From a virus: a stretch of 64,000 nucleotides of DNA. Where the stretch lies: the IMG/VR virus record IMGVR_UViG_3300012940_000022, positions 24,793 through 88,792 of that record, one strand, 5' to 3'. Below, piece by piece: positions 2,211-47,789 of the stretch; within the stretch, counting starts at the first letter, position 1, and every line of letters starts with the position of its first letter. The notes under the pieces are model-generated. The model worked only from the letters and a program-made list of their open reading frames with translations. It made no database searches and was not told where the DNA came from. A program made the translations under genes and the position numbers.

Positions 2211-2257
2211 TGGTAGAATCGACATAGCTGAAGAGTGGACGTGCGTTTTGACGTCGG
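2211..2257 (+). promoter_or_regulatory. Promoter (extended -10 TGG-TAGAAT) and conserved leader upstream of packaging operon
   Basis: TAGAAT 2214-2219; leader 2231-2257 matches 47733-47759 at 22/27 nt at the same distance from its -10. Confidence 0.65.
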
Positions 2258-2290
2258 TGTGTAGGACTTCCCTACTCCCGGCGTTTTTTT
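2251..2290 (+). terminator. Intrinsic terminator/attenuator before parB-terS-terL
   Basis: acgtcgg..gtagg-acttc-cctac..ccggcgt stem then T-tract. Confidence 0.75.
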
Positions 2291-2304
2291 GTTGTGGTGG
2301 CGAG

Positions 2305-2832
2305 ATGACGAATACCCAGGCTTGGCAGAATCGCATCGTGGGGTACGGCGAGGAGCCGCCAGAGCAACTGCTCGCAAATCCCAGGAATTTCCGCGTGCAT
2401 GAGCGGTTTCAACAGGACGCGCTCTCCGGCGTCCTGGAGAGTGTCGGCGTAGTGCAGAACGTCATCTGCAATCGCACCACCGGTCACCTCATCGACGGTC
2501 ACCTTCGCGTCACGCTCGCCATGCGGGCGAACCAACCATCGATCCCAGTCACCTACGTCGAGCTGTCTCCGGAAGAAGAGGCGCTCGTGCTTGCCACCTT
2601 CGACCCGATCACCGCACTCGCAGCCACCGATGAGGCACAGCTTCGCGATCTGCTTGCCGAAGTCGAAACCGAGGACGCGGCGATTCAGGCGCTCTTGAAT
2701 GACCTCGCCAACGACGCGGGTGTTGCCTCATCTGACGATGCCGAGGCGAAGCCGAAAGCGAAAAAGGAAGCGCCGGTGGTGTTGTGCCCCGAATGTGGGC
2801 ACGCGTTCGTGCCGGCCATGAATCGAGACTGA
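2305..2832 (+). CDS. ParB/Srx N-terminal domain protein with C-terminal CPECG
   Basis: ANPRNFRVH...GVVQNVICN...IDGHLRV ParB-N pattern; common location before terminase. Confidence 0.85.
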   Translation: MTNTQAWQNRIVGYGEEPPEQLLANPRNFRVHERFQQDALSGVLESVGVVQNVICNRTTGHLIDGHLRVTLAMRANQPSIPVTYVELSPEEEALVLATFDPITALAATDEAQLRDLLAEVETEDAAIQALLNDLANDAGVASSDDAEAKPKAKKEAPVVLCPECGHAFVPAMNRD

Positions 2833-2833
2833 T

Positions 2834-3271
2834 ATGACCAGACGCCGCGGTCGCCCGCCGAAATACGGGCCAGAGATCCATAAGCAGATTTGCGACTCGC
2901 TCGCGCTCGGCATGAGTCGGACGACCGCCGCTGAACTCGCGGGTATTGACCGGGGTACGCTCAACGAGTGGGCGGGAATGCCACCCGAATGGGACGGAAA
3001 ATACCCAGCATTTTCCAACGATGTCCGCCTGGCGATTGCGAAAGCCAAGCGCCGCGCCACCGTCACGATCACCAACGCGATCCAAAAGGGTGACGTGGCG
3101 GCCGCGTTCCGCTACCTCGCCCTGCAGGAACGCCACGAGTGGCAAGAGACGAAGCAAGTCGACATCCGCGTGCAGATTGAGGATGCGGCGAAGAAGGTCG
3201 CCGATGAGACAGGGCTCTCGATCGAGGAAGTGTTAGCGGAGGCTGAGGCGATCATGCGAGGTGTGGCATGA
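2834..3271 (+). CDS. Terminase small subunit (HTH)
   Basis: GRPPKY start, HTH (RTTAAELAGIDRGTLNEW), helical C-terminus, overlaps terL. Confidence 0.75.
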   Translation: MTRRRGRPPKYGPEIHKQICDSLALGMSRTTAAELAGIDRGTLNEWAGMPPEWDGKYPAFSNDVRLAIAKAKRRATVTITNAIQKGDVAAAFRYLALQERHEWQETKQVDIRVQIEDAAKKVADETGLSIEEVLAEAEAIMRGVA

Positions 3272-4827
3272 ACTCCTCGCCCGCAATGCTCAGCGCTATC
3301 GGCTTGGTCGCGGTACGCCATCGCCACCAGCAGCGGCGCCAGGCTGAGCTCGCCGCTGATCCGCTGGACTGGATCGCCGCGAACTTCAGCGGCTACCTCT
3401 GGCCGCCGTACGCGCCGTATCACACCGAGTACTGGCAGTGGCTCTGGGCGATCGAAGCAGATCATCCAGCCGCGCCGTACGTGATGGTCTGGCCGCGTGG
3501 GTTTGCCAAGAGCACGAGCGTGGAGGTCGGGTGCGCGGCGCTGGCTGCGCGCGGGACTCGCAATTACTGTCTCTACGTAAGCTCTACACAGAACCAAGCG
3601 GACGGTCACGTGGCCAGCGTGGCCGCCATGCTTGAGTCCGAGCAATTCGAGAAGAACTACCCGCGCGTTGCCCGACGGAAGTTGAGCAAATACGGACACT
3701 CACGGGGCTGGCGCCGGAACCGGCTCCGTACCGCGTCCGGATTCACAATCGACGCGATGGGGCTCGACACCGGAGCACGCGGAATAAAAGTGGAAACGAA
3801 TCGACCGGACTATATTCTGTTCGATGACGTCGATGAGTTGTTCGATGGCCCTGCCGCCGTCGCGAAGAAGATCGAAACCATCACGCAAACGATCTTGCCA
3901 GCCCGCGCCAAACACGCCGCCGTTCTCATAGCTCAGAACCTCATTCACGAAGACGGCGTTGTTGCACGGCTGGCGGATGGTCGCGCCGATTTCCTCGCCG
4001 ATCGCATCGTCTCGGGACCCCATCCCGCGATCGCGAACCTCGTCGTCGAAGAGGTCAACGGGAAGCAGACGATCGTCTCCGGCGTGCCGACGTGGGATGC
4101 GGTGACGATCCCTGAATTGCAGAAAGAACTTGACGACATCGGCTTGACTGCGTTCGTGCGCGAGAAGCAACACGAGGTCGGCAACATCGAGGGCGGCATC
4201 TTCGGGCATGTCCATTTCCGCCACTGCACCTGGGACGAGCTGCCGGCGATGGAGCGCATCGTCGTCGCGGTCGATCCGGCCGTGACCGACAAAGACGGCA
4301 GCGACGCGCACGGCATCCAGGCGGACGGCCTCGGGGTCGATGACGATGTCTACCGCCTCTACAGCTGGGAAAGCCGCACCTCGCCCAAGGATTCGATGCG
4401 GCGGGCCATCCTGAAGGCGGTCGAGCTCGGCGCCGATACGGTTGTCGTCGAGACCGATCAGGGCGGTGATACCTGGGAGATCGTCTACAACGACGTTTGG
4501 GATGAACTCGTTGCAGACCCGGACGTGCCGCAAATCACCGCGGACACGTTCAAGCCTGCGTACAAAGAAAACAAGGCTGGCAGCGTCGGATCGAAGGCGA
4601 TGCGCGCCAATCTCATGCTCGCCGACTATGACCGCGCCCAGTTCGTGCATGTTATCGGCACGCACCTCACGCTCGAAAAAGCGCTCAAGCGCTACCTGAA
4701 ACGCAAACCGTACGACTTAGTCGATGCGGGTTTCTGGTCATGGCGGGAGCTTCGGAATCCGGACGAGGAACCGGGGCTGCCGGTCTACACCGCGCGAGGA
4801 AAGGATGGTCGCAGTGTCCGAACATAG
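3268..4827 (+). CDS. terL: Terminase large subunit
   Basis: Walker A PRGFAKST, Walker B ILFDD, RNase H nuclease VAVDPA and DLVDA. Confidence 0.93.
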   Translation: MNSSPAMLSAIGLVAVRHRHQQRRQAELAADPLDWIAANFSGYLWPPYAPYHTEYWQWLWAIEADHPAAPYVMVWPRGFAKSTSVEVGCAALAARGTRNYCLYVSSTQNQADGHVASVAAMLESEQFEKNYPRVARRKLSKYGHSRGWRRNRLRTASGFTIDAMGLDTGARGIKVETNRPDYILFDDVDELFDGPAAVAKKIETITQTILPARAKHAAVLIAQNLIHEDGVVARLADGRADFLADRIVSGPHPAIANLVVEEVNGKQTIVSGVPTWDAVTIPELQKELDDIGLTAFVREKQHEVGNIEGGIFGHVHFRHCTWDELPAMERIVVAVDPAVTDKDGSDAHGIQADGLGVDDDVYRLYSWESRTSPKDSMRRAILKAVELGADTVVVETDQGGDTWEIVYNDVWDELVADPDVPQITADTFKPAYKENKAGSVGSKAMRANLMLADYDRAQFVHVIGTHLTLEKALKRYLKRKPYDLVDAGFWSWRELRNPDEEPGLPVYTARGKDGRSVRT

Positions 4828-5077
4828 CGAAGCCGTGCACGCGTTCGATGAGTTGCGATCAACCGGCTTGCTTTGGCTGATCAATACATCGGTGCTCCAC
4901 CCGCGCGGGTTTGCGCTCGCCCTTGTCTACAAGACGAATGAAACCGGAGAGCGGGAGCCGATCGGTTGGAAGCTCGTTGGCGACGGCACGGAAGCGTGGA
5001 CATTCGGTGACGACATTGATGAGCCTTTCGCGTTGGTGAGTGACCTGCTCAAACCACGTGGGGGCACGTCGTCATGA
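4805..5077 (+). CDS. Phage hypothetical protein (GLLWLIN...HPRGFALA)
   Basis: Recurrent small phage protein pattern; coupled to neighbours. Confidence 0.7.
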   Translation: MVAVSEHSEAVHAFDELRSTGLLWLINTSVLHPRGFALALVYKTNETGEREPIGWKLVGDGTEAWTFGDDIDEPFALVSDLLKPRGGTSS

Positions 5078-5706
5078 TCGAACAATATCTCCGCGCCTGG
5101 GATATCGCAGAGCGGGTCGCTCGGCAGATGGGATGGCCGCTGGGTGAGGTCCTGGGATATTGCGGGCCGCGATTCTACGACGCAGAACTCGATGTCTGCC
5201 GTCGAAACCGAATAAGTCACGAAGACCCGAGCGGAGCGCTGGAGGTATACGAAGAGCTTGCTCAACGCGGCGATCTGGTTTGGGCATTCTGGGAAAATCG
5301 CCCGCCCGGCGGATGGCTATCCGATGAGGATGCGGCACGGCGTTGCTGCATATTGGTGAGTGATCTCGTTATCGCCGGCCAAACTTCCATTCTTTTCGTT
5401 GATCATGGACTCGAAGTCCGACTGCTCATGCTTGACAGTGCGTCCTCTCCTCACATGTCGGCAGAGTTTGGCAAGCCGTCGCGCTATGACACCCAGCTTG
5501 CTGGATCATCACTGTGTATTTGGGCGACTCTCGAACGCTGCTGTGCGTATGCCTCCACGCGCGCGCTAGCCCGATCCATTGATGCCGTGACTGACGGCGC
5601 AATCTCCCACCTCTTCGCGGAGCAGTGCGTTGTCTCATCCGTTGAATGTGCTCGTGATCGCCTCTACAACCACTGGTTCGGCCGCGAAGGCGAGGTGCTG
5701 CCGTGA
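5074..5706 (+). CDS. Hypothetical protein
   Basis: 210-aa ORF with ATGA/GTGA overlaps on both ends. Confidence 0.7.
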   Translation: MIEQYLRAWDIAERVARQMGWPLGEVLGYCGPRFYDAELDVCRRNRISHEDPSGALEVYEELAQRGDLVWAFWENRPPGGWLSDEDAARRCCILVSDLVIAGQTSILFVDHGLEVRLLMLDSASSPHMSAEFGKPSRYDTQLAGSSLCIWATLERCCAYASTRALARSIDAVTDGAISHLFAEQCVVSSVECARDRLYNHWFGREGEVLP

Positions 5707-6050
5707 TGGACTCGCTCGGGCACTGGTGCTTTGCCTGCACGATATGGGATCTGGCTTGGCTGCTCGTGATGATCATTGTGTGCATCACCGCGGCTAGCTG
5801 GATCGGCATGCGCTTCGCGATGTCGCTCAATATCGTCGGTTGGTTCGCCTGGTATCTACTCAGTTATGGGCTAGGCTCGGCGATCCGTCACACCGCAATC
5901 ATCCTCGTCATCGGTTGGCTCCTCGGCTGGTTCCGCGATGACGACAACGATCGGACACGCCGGCGCCGAGCAAGACTCAAGGCGAAGGTCATCGGACAAT
6001 GGGACGCACTCCGCGCCCGCCTGTTTGGTGTCCCGGAGGTGTCGCCGTGA
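5703..6050 (+). CDS. Small multi-pass membrane protein
   Basis: About three hydrophobic segments then basic tail. Confidence 0.7.
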   Translation: MMDSLGHWCFACTIWDLAWLLVMIIVCITAASWIGMRFAMSLNIVGWFAWYLLSYGLGSAIRHTAIILVIGWLLGWFRDDDNDRTRRRRARLKAKVIGQWDALRARLFGVPEVSP

Positions 6051-6397
6051 ACGATGCCCTCGGCCCTCGCACCCGCCAGGTGCTCTATTTACGCGTTGCC
6101 GGCTACACCGGCCCGATGATCGCGGAAACCCTCGGCATGCCCCGGCGCACAGTCTACAAACACCTGCAGAAGCTCCGCCGCACCTTCCTCCCGGGCCTGA
6201 GCTCGACCGATGCACCGTCGAATGTCAATCGCGGCTTTCTCATGGCCTACGTCCTCGGGGCGCTTGATGCCGGCGCGACGATTCGGGAAATTCGCGAACA
6301 GCTCGACATCATGCAAGAGCGCGTCACGCAGGCGCCGGCGGCCATGCGGAGCAAGCAGCCGGACCTCGACGCGGAGCAGTGGCAGATTGGTGGGTGA
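6047..6397 (+). CDS. LuxR/sigma-70 region 4-type HTH protein
   Basis: GGAGG then GTG 6047; LGPRTRQVLYL...GPMIAETLGMPRRTVYKHLQKLRR. Confidence 0.8.
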   Translation: MNDALGPRTRQVLYLRVAGYTGPMIAETLGMPRRTVYKHLQKLRRTFLPGLSSTDAPSNVNRGFLMAYVLGALDAGATIREIREQLDIMQERVTQAPAAMRSKQPDLDAEQWQIGG

Positions 6398-6581
6398 GCC
6401 GCATATCCGGCAACGCCTCGGCTGGCTGCGCCCGCAATGCTGACTCCGGGCCGCTCGCCGATCGCTCAGAGCGACCTCAATGCATGCGCTTACACCACGT
6501 AACGAGCGCGTGCAGCGTATGCTTCCGACGTACGCGACGATCACCGTGATCGCCGAGGTGGGCGAATGCCAGGGAGCATAG

Positions 6582-6989
6582 GTGGAATCGCTGTCCGAAT
6601 CGAACCCCCCGCACATCGTTGTCATCAATGCTGAAGCGGAATTTCTCAAGGTGGTGCGGGTCCTGCTCGCCGACGAGGGCTTTGACGTCACGACGTTGCA
6701 TGTGGACGAGTCGCCGTTTGACGTCATCATCGAGGCGAGCCCGACCGTAATCGTGCTCGATTTCGTCTACGAGCGCCCCGAGGGATGGAATCTCCTTGCC
6801 CTGTTGGATGAGGACGAGCGCACACGAACGATTCCGCTCCTCGCGACATCCACGGACGCGCGCATAGTCGAACAGGTGATCGAACTTTCTTCGCATCGGA
6901 TCCGCAAGGCGCTGCTCGTCAAGCCAGCCGAGCTCGACGATCTGCTCATCGCCGTGCACGACCTCTGCGGACAGTTGTCTCCCCAGTAA
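6582..6989 (+). CDS. Stand-alone response regulator receiver domain
   Basis: IVVINAE, phospho-acceptor VLDF, TRTIP, ATST, VKP motifs. Confidence 0.88.
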   Translation: MESLSESNPPHIVVINAEAEFLKVVRVLLADEGFDVTTLHVDESPFDVIIEASPTVIVLDFVYERPEGWNLLALLDEDERTRTIPLLATSTDARIVEQVIELSSHRIRKALLVKPAELDDLLIAVHDLCGQLSPQ

Positions 6990-7052
6990 CGCGCGTGGTT
7001 TCGATCTTGCAGGATGGCGGCCGAACTCGCTTGTATTCGCGAGAGGACGAAG

Positions 7053-7280
7053 ATGTCGACGCCACCCAGCAGCTCCGTGACCACGCTCCTTCACGAAGCC
7101 CTTCGCGCGCTCACCGTGGCCAGTGCGCAGGTTCAGCTCGCGGATCGCTTGCTCAATGCTCCGAAGCATTCCGACGGTGATGTTCAACGGATCTCCGAAT
7201 ACGTGGACTCCGCAGGAGCGCGCATAAAGGAGACGGTTGCCATCCTCCGCAATCTCGAGTCGCGGCTTGCCGACCCGTGA
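7053..7280 (+). CDS. Stand-alone HisKA/DHp-like helical hairpin (no ATPase domain)
   Basis: LLHEALRALTVASAQVQL resembles the H-box HE-R-PLT; second helix follows; GAGAGG RBS. Confidence 0.6.
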   Translation: MSTPPSSSVTTLLHEALRALTVASAQVQLADRLLNAPKHSDGDVQRISEYVDSAGARIKETVAILRNLESRLADP

Positions 7281-7317
7281 CGGCTTGCGCGCCGCGCCCA
7301 TGCGACGATGACCCGGG

Positions 7318-7366
7318 AAAAGTGCCCCACGCCGTACCCGAGCGTGCCAGATTGCACCGGTAAACT
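7318..7366 (+). promoter_or_regulatory. Late-promoter motif and -10 before portal
   Basis: AAAAGTG-CCC-CACGCCG 7318-7334; TAAACT 7361-7366 (26-bp gap). Confidence 0.6.
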
Positions 7367-7414
7367 CCGAGCAACGACCGGCTGATGACGCCGGGTGACG
7401 CGGAGTGACGCAGG

Positions 7415-9166
7415 GTGGAGATGCTTGACGCGCGAACGGCAAGGCAGCGGAGCGTGCGCGAACTGACGGCCGCCGGCCGGACCGTGAGCCAGATCGCCGA
7501 TCAACTGCGTATCTCCCCTTCGACGGTTCGCCGCGATCTGACCGCGCGATCCACCGATCCGGAAGAACCGCTCCCCAAAGTCTCCAAACGGCAGAAGGTT
7601 GTTGCCGATTCCCCGTATCGCGGCTTCACCCCGACACCGTTCGTCGTACTGCAGCCGCCGACCGCCGATCAGCAAGCCTGGACTAAGCTCGATCTTTCCG
7701 GCGAAACGCTGCGCAATCTCGACCCGGCGAAGCTCTACGACATCCTGCGCACCGTCTCGCCCGATGTCTCGCGTGCCGTCTGGGATTACCTGCGCCTGCT
7801 CGATCCGGGGCATGAGATCACCGTCTTCCGGCCCGGCACCGAGAGGCCCTATCCGGAAGGGCAAGCCAAACTCAACGCGTTCACCGGCACGCTGAAGCAA
7901 CGTTACGGCAGTATGAAGGTCATCACCGGCCGGCTCTTCATGGGTGCGCTGACCCGCGGCGCGTTGTTTGCCGAGCTGGTACTCGATGACGCCGGGCGCA
8001 ATCCGGTCGACCTTGTCGTGCCCGATCCCCTCAGCGTCAGGTTTCGCCAGGCGGACGACCCGGAGCTCGGCACGCGCTGGGAAATGGTGCAATGGCAGGC
8101 GAAGGAGGGCTGGAAGAACATCGAGCGGGAGACCGTCGTCTACATCCCGATCGATCCAGCGCCGGCTTCCCCGTATGGCATTGCCCCGATCGCGCCGGCC
8201 GTCTTCCCGGCCCTGTTCTTGATCGGCCTGCTCGGGGACATCCGTCGCGTCATCGCCCAGCAGGGCTATCCCCGCACCGACCTCGAAATCCAGCTCGACG
8301 GCATTCTCAAGATGCTCGGGCCGAATCCGACGATGGACAAGATCAAGAAGGCCACCAGGGAAATCCTGAATGAGGTGATGGCGGAGTACGCCGGTTTGGA
8401 ACCGGATGACGCCTACGGCCACACCGATGCGGTCAAGGTCAACATGGCGCCGGGGGCGATTGATGCGTCGTCGCTGCGCGGGGTCGAGCCGGTGATTGCT
8501 GCGCTTGAGCGGATGCTGGTCAAGGCCTTGAAGACCATGCCGCTGATGATGGGGGCGACCGACAACACCAGCGAGGCGAATGCGAACCGGCAGTGGGAGA
8601 TTTACGCGGCCGGCATCAAATCGCTGCAACAACTCGCGGAGGCGTTGCTTGAACGGCTCTTTACGCTGGCGCTCCAGGTACAGGGAGTCGCTGCCACAGT
8701 CCGAGTGCGCTTTGCCGAACTCCGCGCGGCGGAGGAACTGAGAGACGAGTTGACACTCGCGCAGAAGCTGGGTAACGCCGAGAACATGGAACGGCTCGGC
8801 TTCGTCGATCACGACGAAGCGTCGCAGCATGCGGTTGGCCACAAAGCGACCGGCACGGTTTCGACCGCACCTTCTAAGGCAGAAGCGCCGGCAACCGGCA
8901 CACCGGCGGGCGAGACCCCGGAACCGCTGAATAACGCCGCATCTGCCAAGCGAGCCAAGAGCGCCGTCGAAAAGGTCGAGCCGGCCGATGCGGACGAGCC
9001 GCTTCCTCCCCTCCCCGATCCGGAAATCAGTGACGACGATATCGATCGGGCGCTCGATACCTGGGATACCGCCATTCCGGACTATGCCGGGCTTCTCGAC
9101 GCTGACGTCATCAACGACGATGAGGGAAGTGATAACGAACTCGACGCCGACGAGGACGGCGAATGA
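7415..9166 (+). CDS. Portal protein with N-terminal HTH
   Basis: Position after terL; SPYGIAPI, LMMGATDNTSEANANRQ and VRVRFAEL portal-like motifs; N-terminal TVSQIADQLRISPSTVRRDL. Confidence 0.85.
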   Translation: MEMLDARTARQRSVRELTAAGRTVSQIADQLRISPSTVRRDLTARSTDPEEPLPKVSKRQKVVADSPYRGFTPTPFVVLQPPTADQQAWTKLDLSGETLRNLDPAKLYDILRTVSPDVSRAVWDYLRLLDPGHEITVFRPGTERPYPEGQAKLNAFTGTLKQRYGSMKVITGRLFMGALTRGALFAELVLDDAGRNPVDLVVPDPLSVRFRQADDPELGTRWEMVQWQAKEGWKNIERETVVYIPIDPAPASPYGIAPIAPAVFPALFLIGLLGDIRRVIAQQGYPRTDLEIQLDGILKMLGPNPTMDKIKKATREILNEVMAEYAGLEPDDAYGHTDAVKVNMAPGAIDASSLRGVEPVIAALERMLVKALKTMPLMMGATDNTSEANANRQWEIYAAGIKSLQQLAEALLERLFTLALQVQGVAATVRVRFAELRAAEELRDELTLAQKLGNAENMERLGFVDHDEASQHAVGHKATGTVSTAPSKAEAPATGTPAGETPEPLNNAASAKRAKSAVEKVEPADADEPLPPLPDPEISDDDIDRALDTWDTAIPDYAGLLDADVINDDEGSDNELDADEDGE

Positions 9167-9328: not shown

Positions 9329-9377
9329 GGAAGTGGGTCAGTTTTGACCCAGTCGTCCAAAGATGGCTTCGTATCCT
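9329..9377 (+). promoter_or_regulatory. Late-promoter motif and -10 before SGNH gene pair
   Basis: GGAAGTG-GGT-CAGTTTT 9329-9345; TATCCT 9372-9377 (26-bp gap). Confidence 0.6.
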
Positions 9378-9550
9378 GTTTACAACGAAGAGTCGGTCCG
9401 CCTCGGCAGGAGCGCCGGCATGTCTGACACCCACAGTAAGAGTATTCACGGTATCAACGCCTGTGGATCGAGTGGGACACCTCTTCTCGCCAGCGGCGGC
9501 TGTTCGCGAACGTGGGGTTACCACAGACCGTAGAGGATGGTACAGCAGCA

Positions 9551-12442: not shown

Positions 12443-12444
12443 TC

Positions 12445-13390: not shown

Positions 13391-13560
13391 TAGAATAATC
13401 GCACCTCGCTTCAGATCCCCCTCAAGGGAGGCACGCAGCGCCCGCTCTCCCCAAAATTCGGCGGGCGTTTGCGTATCAACCACACTCAAGGCATCTTATG
13501 AGGAATGACCGGCCTGGAGCTGGCGGGTGCCTCATGCACCGCCAGCTCCTTTTGCTTTTC
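13391..13560 (+). ncRNA. Candidate ~150-nt structured sRNA or attenuator leader
   Basis: TAGAAT 13391; hairpin 13433-13474; terminator hairpin 13516-13549 with TTTTGCTTTT. Confidence 0.4.
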
Positions 13561-13991
13561 GGCCGGCCGGAGGAGGAACCAGTGGAAAGTCATGGATGGA
13601 CCGGAGCGGAGGGCGCAGCCACCTGGGTGGAGGCGCGACAGAAGACGGAAGCGCTGCTGAGAGCCTTGGGATGAATTGCCATTGACCGGTGGGCTTGCGG
13701 GACGATCGATATCGACGGTCAGCGAATGTACCTCGCGATGGCTGCTGCAGTGAGCATCCAGCGAATAACGCAGCCTTACTGAACCCACATCTCGCGGCAA
13801 ACTGCTTCCGCTTCCTGCCACCGTTAGGTGGCCCAACGCCCTGCTGACAGAGTGAGTCAGCAGGGCGTTGTGGTCCTTTTTCCATTGGTTCGAATGCAGG
13901 ACCACCCCGGACGAGTGGTGGCGCTGATGCTGCGTACGGGGAGCAAACGATCGGCATCTGGCGATCGTCGCGATCCGACTGGCATCACCGG

Positions 13992-14113: not shown

Positions 14114-14156
14114 CGCAAAACGCCCGGCGGGGATACCGCCGGGCATTGTTTTTGCG
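14114..14156. terminator. Probably bidirectional intrinsic terminator
   Basis: aaaac-gcccggcgg-ggata-ccgccgggc-attgttttt between convergent ORFs. Confidence 0.8.
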
Positions 14157-19181: not shown

Positions 19182-19250
19182 CGCCTCGGGTCACTTTTCC
19201 CCCGTCGTCTCCGCGTAATTCTCGAAAACGCCGCATGCCGTGAATAGCAT
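19182..19250 (+). promoter_or_regulatory. Late-promoter half motif and -10 before prohead protease
   Basis: GGT-CACTTTT 19189-19198; TAGCAT 19245-19250. Confidence 0.5.
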
Positions 19251-25906: not shown

Positions 25907-25953
25907 AAAAGTGACCCATTTCTCCGAAGATTTTGCAACGCCGTTGCTAGCAT
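25907..25953 (+). promoter_or_regulatory. Late-promoter motif and extended -10 before tail genes
   Basis: AAAAGTG-ACC-CATTTCT 25907-25923; TGc-TAGCAT 25948-25953 (24-bp gap). Confidence 0.7.
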
Positions 25954-29105: not shown

Positions 29106-29816
29106 CCTGTTCGCGCCGGAAACGTTAGATTCGCTAGTCGTTACCGGCGCGGCGCAACCGATCGACCAGGCTTTCGATGAGAACGTGACCGCAAGCGATG
29201 AGCGCGATATCGACCGCGTGCTTCACTCCTTCGGCAACATCGGCCACACTGATTGACAGGAGACCGCCACCTCGGAGAAGCGAAATAACCGGGCATAGCA
29301 CTTCGATGACAAGCCACGAGCTTACGAAGAACATGTGGTCCTCCATGAGGCTTGTGCACCGCTTGAGGGTCGATCATGTGCTTGACACTCGAAGCTGGCG
29401 GACCTACGATCACTGCACGTGAATCGACCGAGCGGGCAGCACGGACGATTGCGGTATTGGGCTCCCGGCGGGTGTGTTAGGGTCACTGCCGGGGCCCAAT
29501 CGTTTTATTCGGATACCTCCTTCTCGCCAGCATATTCATTGTTGCAGGTTGCTGCCGATAGTTGCCCCCATTGTCAATCCCTAGCTTACGCAACCCACGC
29601 ATCTTCGTTTGGAGACGAAGAGCGTTAGGTTCGTCTTGACAAAGTCCGAAATACCGCCCTTCCAATAGATAGGATAGATATGAAGGGTCGGGACCAGACA
29701 ACACCAAGGAACGCGAGAGCGAACGCTCATGATTGCGGTGTTGGATGGAGGATTCGATGGTCAGCTCGAATACCCGACCTCAAAAAAGCTGTAAGAGTAA
29801 GGAGGTGAAGGGGTCG

Positions 29817-31032: not shown

Positions 31033-31079
31033 AAAAGTGCCCCGATTTCTCCGAATAAGTCGACAGCGTTTTCCATACT
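31033..31079 (+). promoter_or_regulatory. Late-promoter motif and -10 before tape measure gene
   Basis: AAAAGTG-CCC-CGATTTC 31033-31049; CATACT 31074-31079 (24-bp gap); flanks nearly identical to the 25904 site. Confidence 0.7.
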
Positions 31080-39998: not shown

Positions 39999-40013
39999 AC
40001 CGAATTTCTGAGG

Positions 40014-40063
40014 GAGAAAGTGAGACAGCCGGCAGCACGTGCTGCCGGCTGTCTCACTTTCTC
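40014..40063. repeat. Perfect 50-bp palindrome between convergent genes (likely bidirectional terminator)
   Basis: gagaaagtgagacagccggcagcac|gtgctgccggctgtctcactttctc. Confidence 0.9.
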
Positions 40064-40440: not shown

Positions 40441-40461
40441 AGCGTCGGCGTCTCCTGCCGG

Positions 40462-40992
40462 CTAACGCCGGAACTCCCTGTCTTCGAGAACGGCGGACAA
40501 CTCATCAAGCGCGCTCGTGAGCGCTTCCCGTTTTGACCAACCGGGATTCTGTCGGTAATGGAGACGCATGTCCGCCCGTAGCGAGGCCCACGCATCGACG
40601 TCCCTTGCCTCGTCGCCGATCTGCCGCCAGAACCATTTCGGTAGGTCATGCAGATCAGGACGGCGCCTTTCCATCAGCCCAGGCCGTATCTCATCACTCG
40701 CCTGCTCCCGTAGCTCGTCGTCGCGAATGGTAAGGACGGCGTTGCCGGAGTGGCCCTGCTTGGTCTTCATAAACATGACGAAGGTGAGTTCCTCTGCATT
40801 CAGGAACGTCTCATAGGCCGGCTGATCGATCTCGCGCCAGGTCGTGAGCGATGACGGGTCGTCGTCATGCCAGAGAAACGGCACGTCGTCGGCATCGATT
40901 CCAGTGGGTTTTGAATACGCCGTTTCGGGAAGCACCGCCAGTACGCCAGCGCCAACAAGCGAGCGGAGCAAACCGCGCCGGGTGGGACTCAT
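40462..40992 (-). CDS. Protein with Tat-like signal
   Basis: MSPTRRGLLRSLVGAGVLAVLP. Confidence 0.7.
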   Translation of the reverse strand: MSPTRRGLLRSLVGAGVLAVLPETAYSKPTGIDADDVPFLWHDDDPSSLTTWREIDQPAYETFLNAEELTFVMFMKTKQGHSGNAVLTIRDDELREQASDEIRPGLMERRRPDLHDLPKWFWRQIGDEARDVDAWASLRADMRLHYRQNPGWSKREALTSALDELSAVLEDREFRR

Positions 40993-41165
40993 GCCGCCAC
41001 CGCCAGTCGGTAGGCATTGCGCAGCTCGTCGGCAGTAGCGCCCTTGATAACGATGCGCTGACCGAATCGGAAGGCGAACGACGTGTAGCCTTCCCAGGTC
41101 TGCGTCACACGCGGCCGCTCACTGCTGCTCCAATCGGCGAAGCGAAGCGCTGCATCGGTCAACAT
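40989..41165 (-). CDS. 58-aa protein paralogous to C-terminal part of 60288-60896 (absent from ORF track)
   Basis: MLTDAALRFADWSSSERPRVTQTWEGYTSFAFRFGQRIVIKGATADELRNAYRLAVAA; ATGA overlap. Confidence 0.8.
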   Translation of the reverse strand: MLTDAALRFADWSSSERPRVTQTWEGYTSFAFRFGQRIVIKGATADELRNAYRLAVAA

Positions 41166-41260
41166 CATCCGTGCACCATCCCAGACAGTCGGTTAGTCAG
41201 GATCGTCGTAAACCCAAACATGCACCATGCGAGCGGCCAACCCGCAAAGAAGAGATATCC

Positions 41261-42181
41261 CTAAAAGGCCCACTGAACCCAGATAAGGAGCGCAAAGGTA
41301 ATCACTCCCCAGGCCAGACGCCCCGAAGCTGACCGGACATTCCAAGGAGCCCATCCAGGGAGGGACAGTAATACTGTGACTACCAAAATCCTCAGTAAAT
41401 CCCAGTAAGAATACTCAGCCGAATCATGCTCAGCGTTCCGCGTATGCTGCTGCGCTTCTAGGATGAGACGTCTGCTGAAATAGGTAACATCCGGCTCATC
41501 AGACCAATCCTCAAGGCTCAGATGATCTAAGCGATCGGATAGGTCACCTGCTCCGAAGGTCGCGAGCTCATCCGTTGCAGAACGCGGCGCGGACGTAGGA
41601 ACATCGTCGGGAAACTCCTCGGGAACCTCTCGAGGAATAACTCTCCGCTGAGCGAACCTATCGGATGTAAACCTCTGGGGAGCGGGCTGGAGCTCGGAGC
41701 GAATCTCTTCTCTGCGGCGCTCAATTACCCAGATGAGGTAATGATCTCGATCAATTCTCATATCGCTGCCAGAGTTGATGCTGTCCCCCGCCGGTGATGC
41801 AGAAGGACGCAGCTTTTCCAGCATATGCGCAAGCAAGTTGTCCTCACTCTCATAGATTTGCCGGATATTTCGATGCCGGTAATCGACTTGTGACCGCAAG
41901 CCGACTATTTCGGCCTCCAACCGTTCGATCCTGCGCTGATGCCGATCGATGTCTCGCTGCAGAGACGTCTCTCGTTGCCTTGCAGCGATAACAAACTGCT
42001 CATGTGCCGATCGTTCTGCCGCGACGCCTTCGCTAAACCCCAATGCACGATGCTTATTCGAACGACGGCTAGCAATTCCAACAACCTGGTTCTTCCCGAC
42101 ACTCCAACCGGCCACAATCACCGCGCCAATCAGAGCGACGATGACATCACCGATTTTGTCCCACCAATAGCTGTCAGGCAT
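41261..42181 (-). CDS. Membrane protein with coiled coil
   Basis: N-terminal TM, central coiled coil, two C-terminal TMs. Confidence 0.7.
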   Translation of the reverse strand: MPDSYWWDKIGDVIVALIGAVIVAGWSVGKNQVVGIASRRSNKHRALGFSEGVAAERSAHEQFVIAARQRETSLQRDIDRHQRRIERLEAEIVGLRSQVDYRHRNIRQIYESEDNLLAHMLEKLRPSASPAGDSINSGSDMRIDRDHYLIWVIERRREEIRSELQPAPQRFTSDRFAQRRVIPREVPEEFPDDVPTSAPRSATDELATFGAGDLSDRLDHLSLEDWSDEPDVTYFSRRLILEAQQHTRNAEHDSAEYSYWDLLRILVVTVLLSLPGWAPWNVRSASGRLAWGVITFALLIWVQWAF

Positions 42182-42399
42182 GCTGGCTCATCACCATTCG
42201 CTTGTTTACATATCCGAGGCCTACAAAATCATCTGACCGCGCTGTTGCCGGGTCAACGGACAATTGTCCCGAGTTAGGGCTACTTTGGGACCGCATTCGC
42301 ATGATGATCCAGCGTTGATGACTCGGAGCGACGCAACAGCGGAGTGCCAGCCGTGCTAATGGCAATACTTCAGGCGCCGTACTCGAATTCACACCCGCG

Positions 42400-42448
42400 T
42401 TCAAAGGCGCACTTTTGACCCGAGCCCTTCCGAAAACCTCCCTAGCAT
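42400..42448 (+). promoter_or_regulatory. Late-promoter half motif and -10 before tail tip genes
   Basis: GCG-CACTTTT-GAC 42407-42419; TAGCAT 42443-42448 (26-bp gap from CACTTTT). Confidence 0.65.
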
Positions 42449-42505
42449 TGCCGCGATTCGTCCCGAACGCGCGCGGCATCTCCGCCGCCAAACGCGAGGC
42501 GGCCA

Positions 42506-45500
42506 ATGCCCGTCACCCAGCGGATTTTAGGGAGACAGCCCAGCGGAACCTCCGATCCCGATTTCGGCGCGGTCAGCGCCGGGATCATGCGCGTCGGTGT
42601 CTTCGAAAACCCCAATGCCGAGCACCTCTGGATCAAGCGTCTCAACATCCGGGCCGGCAAGTACACCGTCACGAACGGCCAGCTCCGCATCGTCGCCTAC
42701 GACGCGGAGGGCGGGCTCAACGAGCGGCTCGGCTATACCGCCTCGCAGAGCGTCACGGTGCTGCTCGATGAAGATACCGGGTCAGGCGGCGGGCAGACGC
42801 TGAGTAACATTCCGCTCGCGGTCTCCGATACCGGTCCGAGCACCAAAGGCGCGCTGCTTGCCCCCGGTCACGATCTCGGACTCGGCTACGTCGCCATCAC
42901 CGCGCCGGTCTCGCACAACATGGCTGCGTCCGGCCGGCCGGGCGTCAGCGGCAACATTCTCTTCTTTGATCGTTCTAGCGGCATGACCCCGCCCGATCCC
43001 TACGGCACCGCGTCCGGCGATCCTGAAGGCAAAATCACCGTCTGGGCGGAGTGCTATACGAATGAAGAGCCGCGCGTGCCCGTCGGTCGCTCGATCCTCA
43101 ACGGCGACACGCTGACGCCGACGTTCGTCAGCGATTTCCGCGATCGGAACGGGGCCTGGGGCACGGCGAACGACGGCAATGACTGCGGCGACGTGGTCAA
43201 GCGCGTGCGCACTCGCGTCTACGTCGGGAACGCAAGCACGCCGATCTGGGATTACACCTACACCGCCACCGCGAGCGAGCGCGCCAACAATGCCACTAGC
43301 CGGATCTATAGCGGCCCGGCGCTCTCCCGCGGCGTGGAGTATCAGTGGGATATCGCTCACCAGGATTGGGCCGACGCCTGGAGCGAGTTCAGCGACCGGC
43401 TGAGTTTTACGATCCCGGCCGGCGGATCGATCAACGTTACAGGTCCCACCGGCGTGCTTCAGGCGCTAAGTCCGACGGTGACCGGCGTGTGGCACCAGGC
43501 GAACGGGCTGGCGATGAAGACGCTGCGAGCCCGGGTGCGCCAGGGCTCGCTCGTCATCGACACCGGCGATGTGATCACCAAAACGGTGAGTAACGGCAGC
43601 GGTTTCAGCGCCACGTTCGCGCAACTCGGTCTCGATGCGCTCGATTGGAACCAGAGCTACACCGTTCAACTGATGGCAACTGATACCAGCGATACGGCCA
43701 CCTCGTGGTATTCCGGTGCGACCTTCAAGACCGACTCGCCCCCGAGCATTCCGACCAATCTCTCCCCGAGCGGCATCATCACCAATCTCGGCATCGCCTC
43801 GTTCGAGATGGCCGACCCCGACGACGACACGGACTCCGGTTTGCAGGGATTCCTCGTCATCGAGCACGAGCCGGCGATGGCGAACGCCTCGTTTGCCGGG
43901 GGCAGCATTACCGGCTGGACCCAGGCGACGCCATCGGCCGGTATCACCCGCACCTTCGCGGCAGAAACGAGTGTTGTCGCGGATGGAGACGGGGGATCGG
44001 CGAAGATCACCGTCTCCGCCAACACCGGCGGCGGGTCGGCGTATGTCTGGGCGGATGACGAGCTGCCGATCGTCGAGGGCTCGGTGCTGACGGTCCGCTC
44101 GTGGCTGCGGACCACGAATACGAGCCTGCGTCATTTGCGCGCGATCCAGTGGTACGACGCGAGCGACCTGCTGCTCTCGACGTCGGACGAACCGAATTTT
44201 GCACCCGGACTCAACACCTGGGCGCGGCGGGATTACGCGGCCACCGCGCCGGCCGATACGGCTTACGCCAAGATCGGATTCCGCGCGTTCGCCGCGGCAG
44301 GCAGCATCACCGGGACGATTTACGTCGATGGCTTCTTCCCGTTCTGGGAACGGAAGGTCAACGCAGAAGTCAGTGAGCTTACCAGCCTCTGGGAGCACCA
44401 ACTCGACCCCGACGACATGCCGGTCTTCGGAACCTACCGCCTCAGCGCCTACGGCTTCGACGGCACCCTCTACAGCGGCGGGGTCACGAGCGAAACAAAC
44501 GCCGTGCGCTCCGATGTGGTGACGCTCGAGTACTCGGACGGCCCGGACGTGACGATCACCTCGCACACCTCGGGCGACGTCATCAATACGGTGCGGCCGC
44601 TCATCGAATATCTGGCGCCGGACCAGGTGCGGCGTAACGTCGAGGTGCGCGACATGGTCACCGGCGCGCTCGTCCGCCGGTCCGGCTGGCAGGTGACCGA
44701 CGCGCACAGTTATCGCCCGTCCGCCGGGTATCTGCATGACGGCGGGATTTACCGCTTCGTCGTCTACGTCGAGGACATCAACAGCCTCCAAGGCACCGCG
44801 GAAGTCACCAACATTCAGGTGACGATCGAACGGCCACCGGCACTCGATCCGGTCGTCGCCGAGGCGATCTACGTCAACGACGAGCCGCAGCCGTCCGCCA
44901 TCCGTGTGCGTTTTGGCCAGTCCGATCAGGACGTGGATATCTGGCGACGCTACTTCCTCTATCGCTCCGACCTCGTCGACCCGCTTGCCGAGATCACGGC
45001 CATTGGGCAGACGGAATTCGTTGATTACCTGCCTCGCAGCCGCGTGGATTACACCTATGGCGTTTCCCAGGTGACGGAAGTGGACGGCACCGCGCGGGAA
45101 TCGGAAATCGTCTACGTCACCGCACGAGTCGAATTCGAAGGCCTTGTGTGGTGTAACGCTAAGAATCCGACCGCCGAACGGCTGATGTGCGAGGGGTGGC
45201 TGAGTCGCGGCTGGACAACCGACGGACAGGACGCAAGCTATCAGACATGGGAGGAAGAAGCTCAGTTTACGGTCCGTACGTCAGCCGTATGGTTTAATTA
45301 CTCGGCAACTGTCCCACTGATCGATTACGACGACATCCTCGCCGAAGAGCAAGAGGAAAAACTCCGCGCCCTCAACCGGCTCGGCGGCGTCATCTGCTTG
45401 CGCGACGGATACAAGCGCCGCGACTTTGTCAGTATCCCGCGAAAAGGCGGCATCTCGATGGACGATGGCCGGGGCGGCCGCCGCGATCCCACGATCAAGA

Positions 45501-45553
45501 CCGTTTCCGAAGCCTATCGAGAGGACATCGGCGATCAAGGAGATGTCGTCTGA
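42506..45553 (+). CDS. Large minor tail protein (Ig/FN3 and CBM-like domains)
   Basis: Beta-rich 1015 aa; ANASFAGG...APADTAYAKIGF..VDG CBM-like segment; first + gene after TMP. Confidence 0.8.
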   Translation: MPVTQRILGRQPSGTSDPDFGAVSAGIMRVGVFENPNAEHLWIKRLNIRAGKYTVTNGQLRIVAYDAEGGLNERLGYTASQSVTVLLDEDTGSGGGQTLSNIPLAVSDTGPSTKGALLAPGHDLGLGYVAITAPVSHNMAASGRPGVSGNILFFDRSSGMTPPDPYGTASGDPEGKITVWAECYTNEEPRVPVGRSILNGDTLTPTFVSDFRDRNGAWGTANDGNDCGDVVKRVRTRVYVGNASTPIWDYTYTATASERANNATSRIYSGPALSRGVEYQWDIAHQDWADAWSEFSDRLSFTIPAGGSINVTGPTGVLQALSPTVTGVWHQANGLAMKTLRARVRQGSLVIDTGDVITKTVSNGSGFSATFAQLGLDALDWNQSYTVQLMATDTSDTATSWYSGATFKTDSPPSIPTNLSPSGIITNLGIASFEMADPDDDTDSGLQGFLVIEHEPAMANASFAGGSITGWTQATPSAGITRTFAAETSVVADGDGGSAKITVSANTGGGSAYVWADDELPIVEGSVLTVRSWLRTTNTSLRHLRAIQWYDASDLLLSTSDEPNFAPGLNTWARRDYAATAPADTAYAKIGFRAFAAAGSITGTIYVDGFFPFWERKVNAEVSELTSLWEHQLDPDDMPVFGTYRLSAYGFDGTLYSGGVTSETNAVRSDVVTLEYSDGPDVTITSHTSGDVINTVRPLIEYLAPDQVRRNVEVRDMVTGALVRRSGWQVTDAHSYRPSAGYLHDGGIYRFVVYVEDINSLQGTAEVTNIQVTIERPPALDPVVAEAIYVNDEPQPSAIRVRFGQSDQDVDIWRRYFLYRSDLVDPLAEITAIGQTEFVDYLPRSRVDYTYGVSQVTEVDGTARESEIVYVTARVEFEGLVWCNAKNPTAERLMCEGWLSRGWTTDGQDASYQTWEEEAQFTVRTSAVWFNYSATVPLIDYDDILAEEQEEKLRALNRLGGVICLRDGYKRRDFVSIPRKGGISMDDGRGGRRDPTIKTVSEAYREDIGDQGDVV

Positions 45554-46671
45554 TGACCGATGTGGCTTCATTCGGCGGCGGCGTGACCATCGAACGTCGC
45601 ATGTATCTCTGTGATATTGGCGGCAAGCCGATCGATGACATCACGACGCAGATGATCGACTGCACCGTCAGCTGGTCGGCGGGTATGGACGGCGGCACAT
45701 CCATGAAGGTCGACTTCACGATGAAGGAGCGCCTGTCGCCGCTTGCCGCACAGAACACGTTTGTCTCGCCGGAGATCACCTACCGGTGGGGCGACGGAAC
45801 CGTTCGCCGCTCGCGGCTGGGCGTCTATCTGCTCATGCTTCCGCGCAAAACGATTTCCACCGGAGGAGTGGTCGCCTCCTATACCGGCAAGGACCTCACC
45901 TGGATTCTCTACAATTCGACGCTCACCAAAGCCCAGAGCTTCCCGGCCGGCACCAACTTCGGCGAGGCGATCGCGTCGATCTGCCGCGCTGCCGGGCTTA
46001 CCAATCTCGACATCCGCCTGACCAGCCGGACGATGGGAGCGGCACGAACCTTCCGTCGCGGGCAGCGCCGCCGCGGCGAGGCGAACGCGCTCGCAAAAGC
46101 GATAAGTTGGTACAACCTCTACATGGATCTGGACGGTGCGATGACCACCTTGCCCTACCGCGACTGGAGCCAGACTGCGCCGATCGGCATCGTCTCGCCG
46201 AAAGTGCTGATTGGCGACATCCAAGCGACGCCAAGCGTCGATGAAGTGCCGAACACGGTCATGGCAACGATGCAGCGCAACGGCCAGGCGCCGGTCGTGC
46301 GCTACGCCTTCAACACGGATCCCGAATCGCCGATTTCGCTGCAGAACATCGTCCCGGCCGGCCGGCGCATTACCTACGAAGTCACCGACAGTAACGTCGA
46401 AACGATCGCCGATCTCGAGGCGCTCGCCGCGAAGACGCTGCGTGACGTGTCGTCGTTCGAGATGCAGTACGTCTGCCAGTTGAAGCCCGATCCGTCCTGG
46501 CTCGGTATTCAGCGCACAGTCGATCTCGACCCTGCCGTTATTCGCAATGGTGAGCCCCGGCCGGGCCGGTATCACATCAAGGCATGGAAGGTCGGATTGA
46601 CGCCGGAGTCGGCTCCGGTTGAGCTGACGATCGGCAAGACTGTCGACTACGTCGAGGTGGCGGCGGCATGA
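45553..46671 (+). CDS. Baseplate hub/Tal-like minor tail protein
   Basis: LGVYLL, LYMDLDGAM, DEVPNTV, PESPIS siphovirus hub pattern. Confidence 0.75.
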   Translation: MTDVASFGGGVTIERRMYLCDIGGKPIDDITTQMIDCTVSWSAGMDGGTSMKVDFTMKERLSPLAAQNTFVSPEITYRWGDGTVRRSRLGVYLLMLPRKTISTGGVVASYTGKDLTWILYNSTLTKAQSFPAGTNFGEAIASICRAAGLTNLDIRLTSRTMGAARTFRRGQRRRGEANALAKAISWYNLYMDLDGAMTTLPYRDWSQTAPIGIVSPKVLIGDIQATPSVDEVPNTVMATMQRNGQAPVVRYAFNTDPESPISLQNIVPAGRRITYEVTDSNVETIADLEALAAKTLRDVSSFEMQYVCQLKPDPSWLGIQRTVDLDPAVIRNGEPRPGRYHIKAWKVGLTPESAPVELTIGKTVDYVEVAAA

Positions 46672-47357
46672 GCGCCGGGCAGGGCAAAGCGATTGCCGAA
46701 CGCTGGCGGCGCAAGTTCAGCGATCTTCGCCGGCGAACCTCACCCTATCAGGCGCTGGCAGAATCAGCCAGCAACGGGCAAGTTACGCTGCTCGAGACCG
46801 CCGAAGGTGAAGAGCCCTACGAGCAGCCGGCCAGCAAGCTTCGCTCCGCCGATGTCCGAGCCGGCGATCTCGTCCTGGTGCTTCCGGTCATCGACGACCA
46901 GGGAGCGGAGTCGTTCTACGTCGCCGGCGTGATCGATGACGGAACGACGCGCATCCCGATCGGGACGAGTTATCGCGATGGCCGCGCGCAGACGGCCGCC
47001 GACACCCCGAGCACGACCAGCACCACGACATTTGCCAACGCGATCAGCTGGAGCTGGACAGATCTGCCGGATGGCACCTACGACATCGCCGTCGAGTACA
47101 GCTACCTGGCGGCGCACGACACCGGCGGATCGATCGTCTTTCGCTCGATGTGCGGCGGGACGGCCGGTACCACACGGACGCTCGGCGCCTCGACCGGCAC
47201 CGTCGGTACGATGCGCGTCGAGGACATCAGCACCTTTAGCGGAGTCGTCGTTGCCGGCGGGATCACCATCGTCGGCCAGCATCACGCTTCGACGAGCGGT
47301 ACGTCATACGCCCGGAATCCGGTGATTAAGGCGACCGCAACCCGAACTGGAGACTAG
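46668..47357 (+). CDS. Minor tail protein (OB-fold + beta domain)
   Basis: VRAGDLVLV...YVAGVI then Thr-rich beta domain. Confidence 0.7.
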   Translation: MSAGQGKAIAERWRRKFSDLRRRTSPYQALAESASNGQVTLLETAEGEEPYEQPASKLRSADVRAGDLVLVLPVIDDQGAESFYVAGVIDDGTTRIPIGTSYRDGRAQTAADTPSTTSTTTFANAISWSWTDLPDGTYDIAVEYSYLAAHDTGGSIVFRSMCGGTAGTTRTLGASTGTVGTMRVEDISTFSGVVVAGGITIVGQHHASTSGTSYARNPVIKATATRTGD

Positions 47358-47358
47358 T

Positions 47359-47664
47359 ATGGCCCTGATTGACAGTATCAGCCTCGCGAGCGACATCCCC
47401 TTTCAGCAGCGGGTCAGCGTCGCCGCGATCAAGCGGGCAAAAGCGGTGGCAAGCATCGGGGAAAACAATGCCGAGCTTGCTCGCCGCATCGTCATGTCGC
47501 CGGCAAACTGGGGCAAGATCATGGCCGCCAGCATTGCGGTCGATGAGGCAGTACTCGCCGCTGCAGCCATGGACGATGCCGAGGCCTTCGATACCGCGAT
47601 CGAGACGGCTCTCGCCGACATCTGGTCGCTCTACCTGATCGGCAGCGATCCCGAGCCTACATGA
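47359..47664 (+). CDS. Small tail-associated protein
   Basis: FQQRVSVAAIKRAKAV helical pattern at end of tail module. Confidence 0.7.
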   Translation: MALIDSISLASDIPFQQRVSVAAIKRAKAVASIGENNAELARRIVMSPANWGKIMAASIAVDEAVLAAAAMDDAEAFDTAIETALADIWSLYLIGSDPEPT

Positions 47665-47759
47665 AATTGGGTCACTTTTAGCCCGACTCGTGGCGCTGCC
47701 TGCGTAGCCGGGTCGTACCCTTTGTGTAAGTCAAGAGTGGGCGCGCGTTTGGCCGCCGG
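47663..47759 (+). promoter_or_regulatory. Late-promoter motif, -10 and conserved leader before lysis cassette
   Basis: GAAATTG-GGT-CACTTTT 47663-47679; TACCCT 47716-47721; leader 47733-47759 homologous to 2231-2257. Confidence 0.7.
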
Positions 47760-47789
47760 GGATTCCGCGAGGAGTCTTCCGGCGTTTTT
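47754..47789 (+). terminator. Intrinsic terminator/attenuator before lysis genes
   Basis: cgccggggattcc-gcga-ggagtcttccggcg-ttttt. Confidence 0.8.

Follow-up and report, generated by a model that had tools for sequence, protein, structure and literature searches.

Two similar promoter-leader-terminator cassettes are present in a 64,000-nt window of viral DNA, which corresponds to bases 24793-88792 of the 88,792-bp IMG/VR virus record IMGVR_UViG_3300012940_000022 (79% complete according to CheckV). Cassette 1 stands directly before the packaging operon and cassette 2 directly before a probable lysis operon. Judged from their sequences and surroundings, the two probably serve in cis as targets for a switch that controls late genes of the phage by antitermination. 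Such a switch would resemble that of Q but have a regulator unrelated to it and, probably, another way of recognising its target. The candidate regulator is an 87-aa zinc-ribbon protein encoded at 1924-2187, just upstream of cassette 1, and we consider it somewhat better than an even bet (probability about 0.55) that this protein directs late-gene antitermination through RNA. In such a model, each cassette would provide a host-type promoter, and the transcript would reach a strong intrinsic terminator about 25 nt further on, directly before the packaging or lysis operon. In the default state, RNA polymerase would make an RNA of 60-65 nt and then stop. The 1924-2187 protein would bind the leader common to both cassettes, most likely in the nascent RNA, and binding would block or override formation of the terminator, allowing transcription to enter the terminase and lysis genes.

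The leader is conserved as a block of 27 nt on the plus strand, AAGAGTGGACGTGCGTTTTGACGTCGG at 2231-2257 (W1) and AAGAGTGGGCGCGCGTTTGGCCGCCGG at 47733-47759 (W2), with 22 of the 27 positions identical and AAGAGUGGrCGyGCGUUUkGmCGyCGG as the consensus of the RNA. The 3′ end of this block is the 5′ arm of the terminator base. Intrinsic terminator 1 (2250-2290, plus strand) has a lower stem formed by CGTCGG (2252-2257) and CCGGCG (2278-2283), followed by a T-run at 2284-2290 (T7), and passes the strict criterion defined below. Intrinsic terminator 2 (47754-47789, plus strand), formed by CGCCGG (47754-47759) and CCGGCG (47779-47784) and followed by T5 at 47785-47789, was found by the terminator scan as well as by the strict criterion. 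The folding energy was -19.5 kcal/mol for terminator 1 (z -4.7) and -22.4 kcal/mol for terminator 2 (z -3.5), and in both cases 0 of 200 shuffles folded as well. Both cassettes therefore show the G+C-rich hairpin directly before a U-run that is typical of an intrinsic terminator. W1 and W2 agree in the leader and in the two arms at the base of the terminator, whereas their upper stems are unrelated, in length as well as in sequence.

Upstream of the leaders, promoter P1 (2190-2219, plus strand) consists of GCGACA, a spacing of 18 nt and the extended -10 element TGgTAGAAT (2211-2219), and scored 9/12 with the TG in the promoter scan. The second promoter, P3 (47669-47721, plus strand), consists of the palindrome-like GGGTCACTTTTAGCCC (47669-47684) and the weak -10 hexamer TCGTACCCT (47716-47721), found in the context TCgTACCCT at 47713-47721; it was not detected by the sigma-70 promoter scan. 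From these elements we infer transcription starts near 2226 and 47728, respectively. The distance from the -10 hexamer to the AAGAGT at the beginning of the leader is 11 nt both for TAGAAT (2214-2219) and for TACCCT (47716-47721). A preliminary description of this DNA had reported the 22/27 match and the -10 spacings, and all its letters and positions were correct on re-reading; its statement that both terminators end in CCGGCG and a T-run and have different upper stems agrees with the folds given above. It had also compared the layout with lambda pR′-qut-tR′, and a predicted promoter, a leader of about 25 nt and an intrinsic terminator directly before an operon do appear at both homologous sites. 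The interpretation given there, an antitermination or attenuation element, is supported to the extent that sequences can be compared.

The identity of 22/27 alone is not significant, since about 6 ungapped matches of this quality are expected by chance in an all-against-all comparison of 64 kb. When the 48-nt stretches upstream of 55 terminator-like hairpins in the 88.8-kb genome were compared, W1 and W2 formed the sole outlier among 1485 pairs, with a score of 22 against 18 for the runner-up (mean 13.4, sd 1.3). A further test with a degenerate pattern (0/100 shuffles) is circular and carries little weight. Searching Rfam with the whole window at the gathering score gave a tRNA-Met as the sole match and none on the cassettes; in E-value mode, the best matches on the cassettes were sroD (12.1 bits, gathering 50) and SAM-IV (17.8 bits, gathering 38), and the plus strand gave nothing that passed the gathering threshold or reached E <= 0.1. 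When cassette 1 was compared with its own genome by BLAST, cassette 2 was not returned, and therefore BLAST-type tools cannot find copies so short. An exact-pattern scan of viral contigs with AAGAGTGGNCGNGCGTTT gave 9 loci, which we regard as chance matches because none has a terminator or a similar context.

Between the end of the zinc-ribbon gene (1924-2187, plus strand, 264 bp) and the -35-like hexamer of cassette 1 there are 3 nt. The product of this gene, P0123, carries CPSC ... CRC (CxxC ... CxC) and is the candidate trans-acting antiterminator. The longest ATG open reading frames (ORFs) beside the two cassettes, 1851-2216 and 47880-48437, are arginine/proline-rich artefacts of the wrong frame, and the real genes are 1924-2187 and 47869-48150. 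The preliminary description had taken the wrong frame upstream of cassette 1, which is the reason why the candidate regulator was missed. A related-locus search with the wrong-frame ORF 47880-48437 found none. P0123 matched no family in Pfam, PHROGs or the PDB sequences beyond generic zinc-ribbon noise, and a word-index protein search returned the query itself alone. Its AlphaFold model (pLDDT 77.4) is all beta; Foldseek found no match at E <= 0.001, and the best VIA match had a Z of 2.9. With a profile of eight members, a search of 1.84 billion proteins gave 31 representatives (E <= 1e-3), which with few exceptions are 63-94 aa long. No Q homologue (PF03589, PF06530) was found in the whole 88.8-kb record, nor among matches of P0123 or of 30 family members, and no AlpA homologue (PF05930) was found in the genome. 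It is conceivable, at rather less than even odds, that these 63-94-aa zinc-ribbon proteins are an undescribed family of sequence-specific, probably RNA-binding antiterminators, each phage having its own protein/leader pair before several late operons.

The arrangement of gene and cassette recurs in related phages. Zinc-ribbon genes were sought by tblastn and profile search across loci related by their large terminase (TerL), giving 14 genes in 13 distinct loci, the window counted in. A strict terminator (dG <= -16 kcal/mol, hairpin <= 45 nt, T-run) within 150 nt of the gene was found after 11 of the 14 genes, compared with a same-strand background of 31 in 200,204 nt (binomial P = 1.4e-15). 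A TAnnnT hexamer is present between gene end and stem in all 14 cases, 15-38 nt upstream in 13 of them and 57 nt upstream in L129, and is extended by TGn in 9 of the 14; upstream of the other terminator-like hairpins in the window's own genome, TAnnnT was found in 3 of 53. The module lies before the gene for the small terminase (TerS) or a ParB-like protein in the window, L015a, L021, L044, L098, L096 and L095, and after TerL in L015b, L016, L019, L043 and L025. In L015, both positions are occupied, with different protein subtypes and unrelated leaders. The existence of two genome positions, both used in L015, indicates that gene and cassette move as a unit. As to sequence, the leader of L015a, GCGTTGCGTTGTGCCGCCGG ... 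CCGGCGGCGTTTTT, is recognisably that of the window. Conservation of the leader in relatives had been named beforehand as a check on the preliminary description; the outcome is mixed, though on the positive side, with the architecture recurring beside zinc-ribbon genes in 13 loci and the sequence in L015 alone.

In the cassettes linked to short-type zinc-ribbon genes (L015b, L019, L043, L025 and G407b), the 3′ arm of the terminator contains the Shine-Dalgarno sequence for the gene that follows, whose start codon is 0-6 nt from the T-run (L015 6797-6840, L019 6671-6715, L043 8317-8365, L025 9643-9695 and G407 14848 on the minus strand). The hairpin of this type could block translation besides transcription.

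Four related phage records were read as a whole, namely G406, G407, G408, which is complete with terminal repeats, and G409, a 33%-complete provirus fragment. Three of them (G406, G407 and G408) carry a second copy of their own promoter, leader and terminator base before another late operon; G409 has one cassette. Two cassettes of G406 have TGnTACACTGA, GGCCGTTTTTG and the identical block GGCCAATTGTCGGCC in common and differ in their upper stems; this phage has a third, different cassette behind a second zinc-ribbon gene. Those of G407 are alike along their full length, and those of G408 have GTTAACATAG and the terminator in common. The extra copies precede capsid or head-tail genes. A constant leader and stem base with a variable upper stem, placed before different late operons, thus appears as a general trait of this phage group, and such a pattern is what a trans-acting, sequence-specific factor would be expected to select for.

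Recognition of the nascent RNA is favored because conservation is found from about +6 to +32, in a block that follows the predicted start, precedes the terminator and takes in the terminator's 5′ arm, and because the promoter regions of W1 and W2 have nothing convincing in common. It is favored, too, because a small competing hairpin can form that uses the 5′ arm of the terminator as its own 3′ arm. This hairpin is possible in W1, W2, L015a, L021, G406a/b and G407a/b (8 cassettes from 5 phages), and it shows two compensatory changes: A-U becomes G-C between the window's two copies, and G-C becomes A-U in G407. The competing hairpin lends weak support to an RNA target.

Several observations weigh against the RNA-directed model. 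The competing hairpin is not exceptional when compared with shuffled leaders (0.32-0.38 for W1 and 0.60 for W2, with most others no better); it stands above them in G407a/b only (0.02-0.04), and G408 has none. P0123 has no demonstrable nucleic-acid-binding family, the nearest indications being a 17% probability by hhalign to Mu Com and a structural Z of 2.9. The -10 hexamer of P3, TACCCT, is poor, and this promoter may need an activator. Three of the 14 zinc-ribbon genes have no strict terminator, L021 and L044 having a strong hairpin with an interrupted T-run and L026 no T-run, and no cassette accompanies the weaker family matches L196 and L199. Across 895,157 bases of related loci, L015 was the only relative to show the leader sequence: a covariance model built from W1, W2 and L015 returned its training sequences alone at E <= 1, and fuzzy and regex leader searches of the TerL-related loci returned L015 only. 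Finally, common descent alone would also give a similar protein with a similar leader.

The same switch might be operated in the manner of lambda Q or AlpA, the zinc-ribbon regulator binding duplex DNA at or near the promoter and loading onto a paused RNA polymerase that would become terminator-resistant, with AAGAGT at +6 to +11 as the sigma-dependent pause element. A gene followed by promoter, terminator and late genes is what the literature defines as a Q-dependent cassette (bioRxiv 10.1101/651190), and AlpA is a small protein that manages a terminator 26 bp past the promoter (PMC7969949). With its A2 and T6, AAGAGT resembles a -10 element, and it occurs in all three promoter copies, including one without a terminator (see below), and the plus-strand terminators inside the late region (near 13516, 13830, 14122, 29454 and 40020) would suit a processive factor. 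Nevertheless, we regard DNA loading as unlikely, because W1 and W2 show no convincing similarity upstream of or in the promoter, where the binding sites of Q and AlpA (QBE and ABE) lie, the block at +6 to +32 would be covered by the initiating or paused polymerase, relatives do not keep AAGAGT-like elements, and no Q or AlpA family match was found. Another explanation, which we consider quite improbable, is that the cassettes are insulators or small RNA (sRNA) genes independent of the zinc-ribbon protein. They would make a constitutive RNA of about 65 nt, like the lambda 6S/StxS by-product, the downstream genes would be served by leak or by read-through dependent on a host factor or condition, and the zinc-ribbon gene would be the usual last gene of the preceding operon. 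A short 5′ tail followed by a terminator is indeed the architecture of many sRNAs, an sRNA terminated after PR′ is known in Stx phages (PMC7547250), and no evidence ties the protein to nucleic acid. What this leaves unexplained is the movement of the small gene together with its cassette to two genome positions, and the retention of leader and stem base within one phage while the rest diverges; moreover, where a terminator of -16 to -37 kcal/mol with its T-run stands immediately ahead of essential genes, some regulated form of read-through is to be expected.

It is very unlikely that the cassettes are RNA antiterminators acting in cis, or attenuators that sense some condition, and work without a phage protein in the manner of HK022 put or Tn916 canT. 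Processive cis RNA antiterminators do occur in mobile elements (PMC11658703), but in 13 of the 14 cassettes only 9-28 nt of leader precede the terminator, too few for folds like those of put or canT; a constitutive cis antiterminator ahead of its own terminator would make that terminator pointless; and on the plus strand Rfam yielded nothing that reached its gathering threshold or E <= 0.1. That the cassettes are chance matches or plain operon-end terminators whose similarity has no function is scarcely credible. The six or so 22/27 matches expected in 64 kb apply to all positions compared, whereas the two copies here are aligned with a -10 hexamer and a terminator at either site, no other pair of terminator-upstream stretches stands out as theirs does, and the same design recurs in relatives.

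Late-gene antitermination is a textbook mechanism described for a handful of protein families, almost all of them studied in Proteobacteria. As in the lambdoid Q cassette, the proposed regulator gene is located directly upstream of a promoter, a terminator and the late packaging or lysis genes; this adjacency is found in the window, and the same order is repeated in 13 loci at the level of sequence. The preprint bioRxiv 10.1101/651190 describes the Q-dependent cassette as regulator gene, promoter, pause element, terminator and late genes, and the published Q families as mutually unrelated, yet found at one genome position. Unlike Q, the regulator here is an all-beta zinc ribbon of 63-94 aa that belongs to neither PF03589 nor PF06530, and its hosts are probably Chloroflexota or other non-proteobacterial soil bacteria. 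The cassette differs as well: its terminator begins about 25 nt past the predicted start, several dispersed copies are present per genome, and the conserved element lies downstream of the start and not inside the promoter. With regard to the pause element, AAGAGT (A2, T6) is found at about +6 to +11 in three promoters and is absent as a kept element in relatives.

AlpA of Pseudomonas aeruginosa (PMC7969949, PMC9371919) likewise combines a small protein, a promoter-proximal terminator, lysis cargo and more than one target promoter with a shared motif (alpB and PA0807); at PA0807, the intrinsic terminator is 26 bp downstream of the promoter (PMC7969949). AlpA is, however, a predicted winged-helix protein with a site between -35 and -10, whereas here no PF05930 match was found and W1 and W2 have no shared block in that region. 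Mu Com is a tiny zinc-finger protein encoded just upstream of its mom RNA target, where it opens an inhibitory hairpin (PMC6483171). The present system is similar in having a tiny zinc protein beside an inhibitory hairpin, with the Shine-Dalgarno sequence in the terminator 3′ arm of the short-type cassettes, and different in that Com works on translation, not on termination. Membership in the Com family (PF10122) is not supported: P0123 gave no match, one of five short-type relatives reached 19.9 bits against a cut-off of 22.9, and the family profile aligned to Mu Com by hhalign with 17% probability across 13 columns. The Com RNA motif (GAG-N2-CC / CC-N2-3-GAG in a hairpin loop; PMC6483171) is absent in W1 and W2, which have GAG (AAGAGUGG). 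L095 has CCAAGAG, and GAG is found by eye in the leaders of 7 of the 14 cassettes, with no clear enrichment.

The BglG/SacY/LicT proteins are RNA-binding antiterminators whose RAT-type antiterminator overlaps the terminator. A short leader element overlapping the 5′ arm of an intrinsic terminator is found here as well, and protein binding would similarly favor a non-terminating fold. The present protein, however, has a fold unrelated to theirs, statistics do not support the competing hairpin in most cassettes, and the regulon consists of phage late genes. HK022 put, in turn, is a cis RNA antiterminator. Xp10 p7, P23-45 gp39 and Tn916 canT (for canT, PMC11658703) are further examples of small factors of phages or mobile elements that suppress intrinsic termination. 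By contrast with the present case, p7 and gp39 act without a gene-adjacent, sequence-specific, multi-copy leader, and put and canT need no protein. Among the titles and abstract openings of a limited literature collection, no zinc-ribbon protein was found paired with promoter-proximal terminator cassettes.

If the model holds, it would be a further independent solution to the problem solved by lambda Q, in phages of poorly studied soil phyla, and a new model of how a very small protein defeats an intrinsic terminator. Phages of Chloroflexota-type hosts would have a possible means to time their packaging, head, tail and lysis genes, and an uncharacterised family of small proteins (31 representatives) is linked to a candidate function. 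The module is compact and testable, consisting of a 264-bp gene and a cis element of about 100 bp. That L015 and G406 each carry different pairs suggests that the pairs are specific, and if so, they could serve as orthogonal protein-RNA gene switches.

The genes behind the two cassettes agree with the claim of the preliminary description that packaging and lysis operons follow them. After cassette 1, the packaging operon (2305-4827, plus strand) comprises genes for a ParB-like protein (2305-2832), the small terminase (2834-3271) and the large terminase (3268-4827), with PHROG matches of 1.5e-15 to 3.5e-41. The T-run of terminator 1 is 14 nt from the ParB-like start codon, which leaves no space for a further promoter, and therefore terminase expression requires read-through. 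The ParB-like protein has 175 aa in the window, and its homologue in L095 (121-1434) forms the N-terminal domain of a longer protein (437 aa), whose C-terminal part resembles a DNA methyltransferase. Upstream of cassette 2 are tail genes, including 45553-46671, which matches phrog_1887 (tail protein). The probable lysis module (47869-52197, plus strand) begins after cassette 2 with a protein having a transmembrane (TM) segment and a coiled coil (47869-48150; phrog_1403 Rz-like spanin, 4.9e-5), and continues with a 4-TM protein (48434-48883), a 581-aa glucosaminidase/amidase endolysin (49585-51330) and a TM protein (51781-52197), all on the plus strand; the TM segments were taken from the translations. 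The endolysin assignment is based on a sub-threshold Pfam match (PF01832, 27.2 bits, cut-off 30.2) and on Atlas, where the feature score to Glucosaminidase+Amidase_2 clusters was 0.96 and the structure rows led to Amidase_2; a search of the PDB sequences returned nothing. Calling the genes after cassette 2 a lysis operon is reasonable and moderately supported. A small protein of the lysis region (48766-49110) matches the DnaJ-type CxxCxGxG zinc finger (PF00684, 24.4 bits, under the cut-off).

Between the cassettes, the structural-gene region contains very strong plus-strand terminators of its own, with dG of -21 to -37 kcal/mol, at about 13516-13550, 13830-13877, 14122-14150, 29454-29500 and 40020-40060. 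Expression across these would need read-through or downstream promoters.

AAGAGT occurs a third time, 10 nt after the -10 hexamer TATCCT at 9372-9377, and this site, which the preliminary description had pointed out, is real, though the pattern TAnnnT-N9-13-AAGAG[TC] is found 3 times in the genome against 2.7 expected, a count not above chance. All three sites are intergenic and on the plus strand. The promoters at 9372 and 47716 have in common TCGTAyCCT and the upstream inverted repeat GGGTCA-sTTT-TgaCCC, and for this reason we regard the 9372 site (9335-9393, plus strand) as a third copy of the promoter, without a terminator; it consists of the palindrome GGGTCAGTTTTGACCC (9335-9350), TCGTATCCT with the -10 at 9372-9377, and AAGAGT at 9388-9393.

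The inverted repeat, GGGTCA-CTTT-TGACCC, is perfect at 9335 and occurs at six intergenic places on both strands, 9335-9350, 19188-19203 and 47669-47684 on the plus strand and, with starts at 31043, 25917 and 7328, on the minus strand. It lies upstream of the predicted start, with its center at a distance of about 41.5 nt in the case of the 9372 promoter and 51.5 nt in that of the 47716 promoter, and the copy at 25917 overlaps the -35 position belonging to a promoter with TGaTAGAAT. The repeat resembles an operator for a dimeric regulator, which might be an activator or a repressor. An extracytoplasmic function (ECF) sigma reading of the GGGTCACTTTT motif was ruled out by spacing, and the inverted repeat fits better. 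A small protein between terminase and portal (6056-6181) matches a Sigma70_r4_2-type helix-turn-helix (HTH) with 31.9 bits, above the cut-off, and is a candidate for binding the inverted repeat. A weak match of the same type (7469-7540) falls at the N-terminus of the portal protein.

In the genome sample of the phylum, a zinc-ribbon match at E <= 1e-3 was found in 5 of 401 genomes, the center genome included; a weaker match in this sample, L200, looks non-coding. Used as a single query, TerL gave 3 short loci in viral contigs and 0 in genome contigs, and single locus-search queries with the zinc-ribbon relatives P0131 and P0132 gave nothing. The G+C content of the window is about 60%. The stretch is present in full in one DNA run from a soil metagenome, with a small share in a rhizosphere run, and no RNA run is among those listed for it; a megablast search of deposited phages with 1800-6000 of the window gave no match. 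Relatives of the large terminase are found in viral contigs and in metagenome-assembled genomes (MAGs) titled Thermomicrobiales, Dehalococcoidia, Rubrobacter and others. From these MAG titles and the soil source, the host is probably a soil bacterium outside Proteobacteria, from Chloroflexota or another non-proteobacterial group. The tRNA-Met (CAT) at 62929-63004 of the window, close to where the record ends, may be a tRNA of the phage or the remnant of an attachment site.

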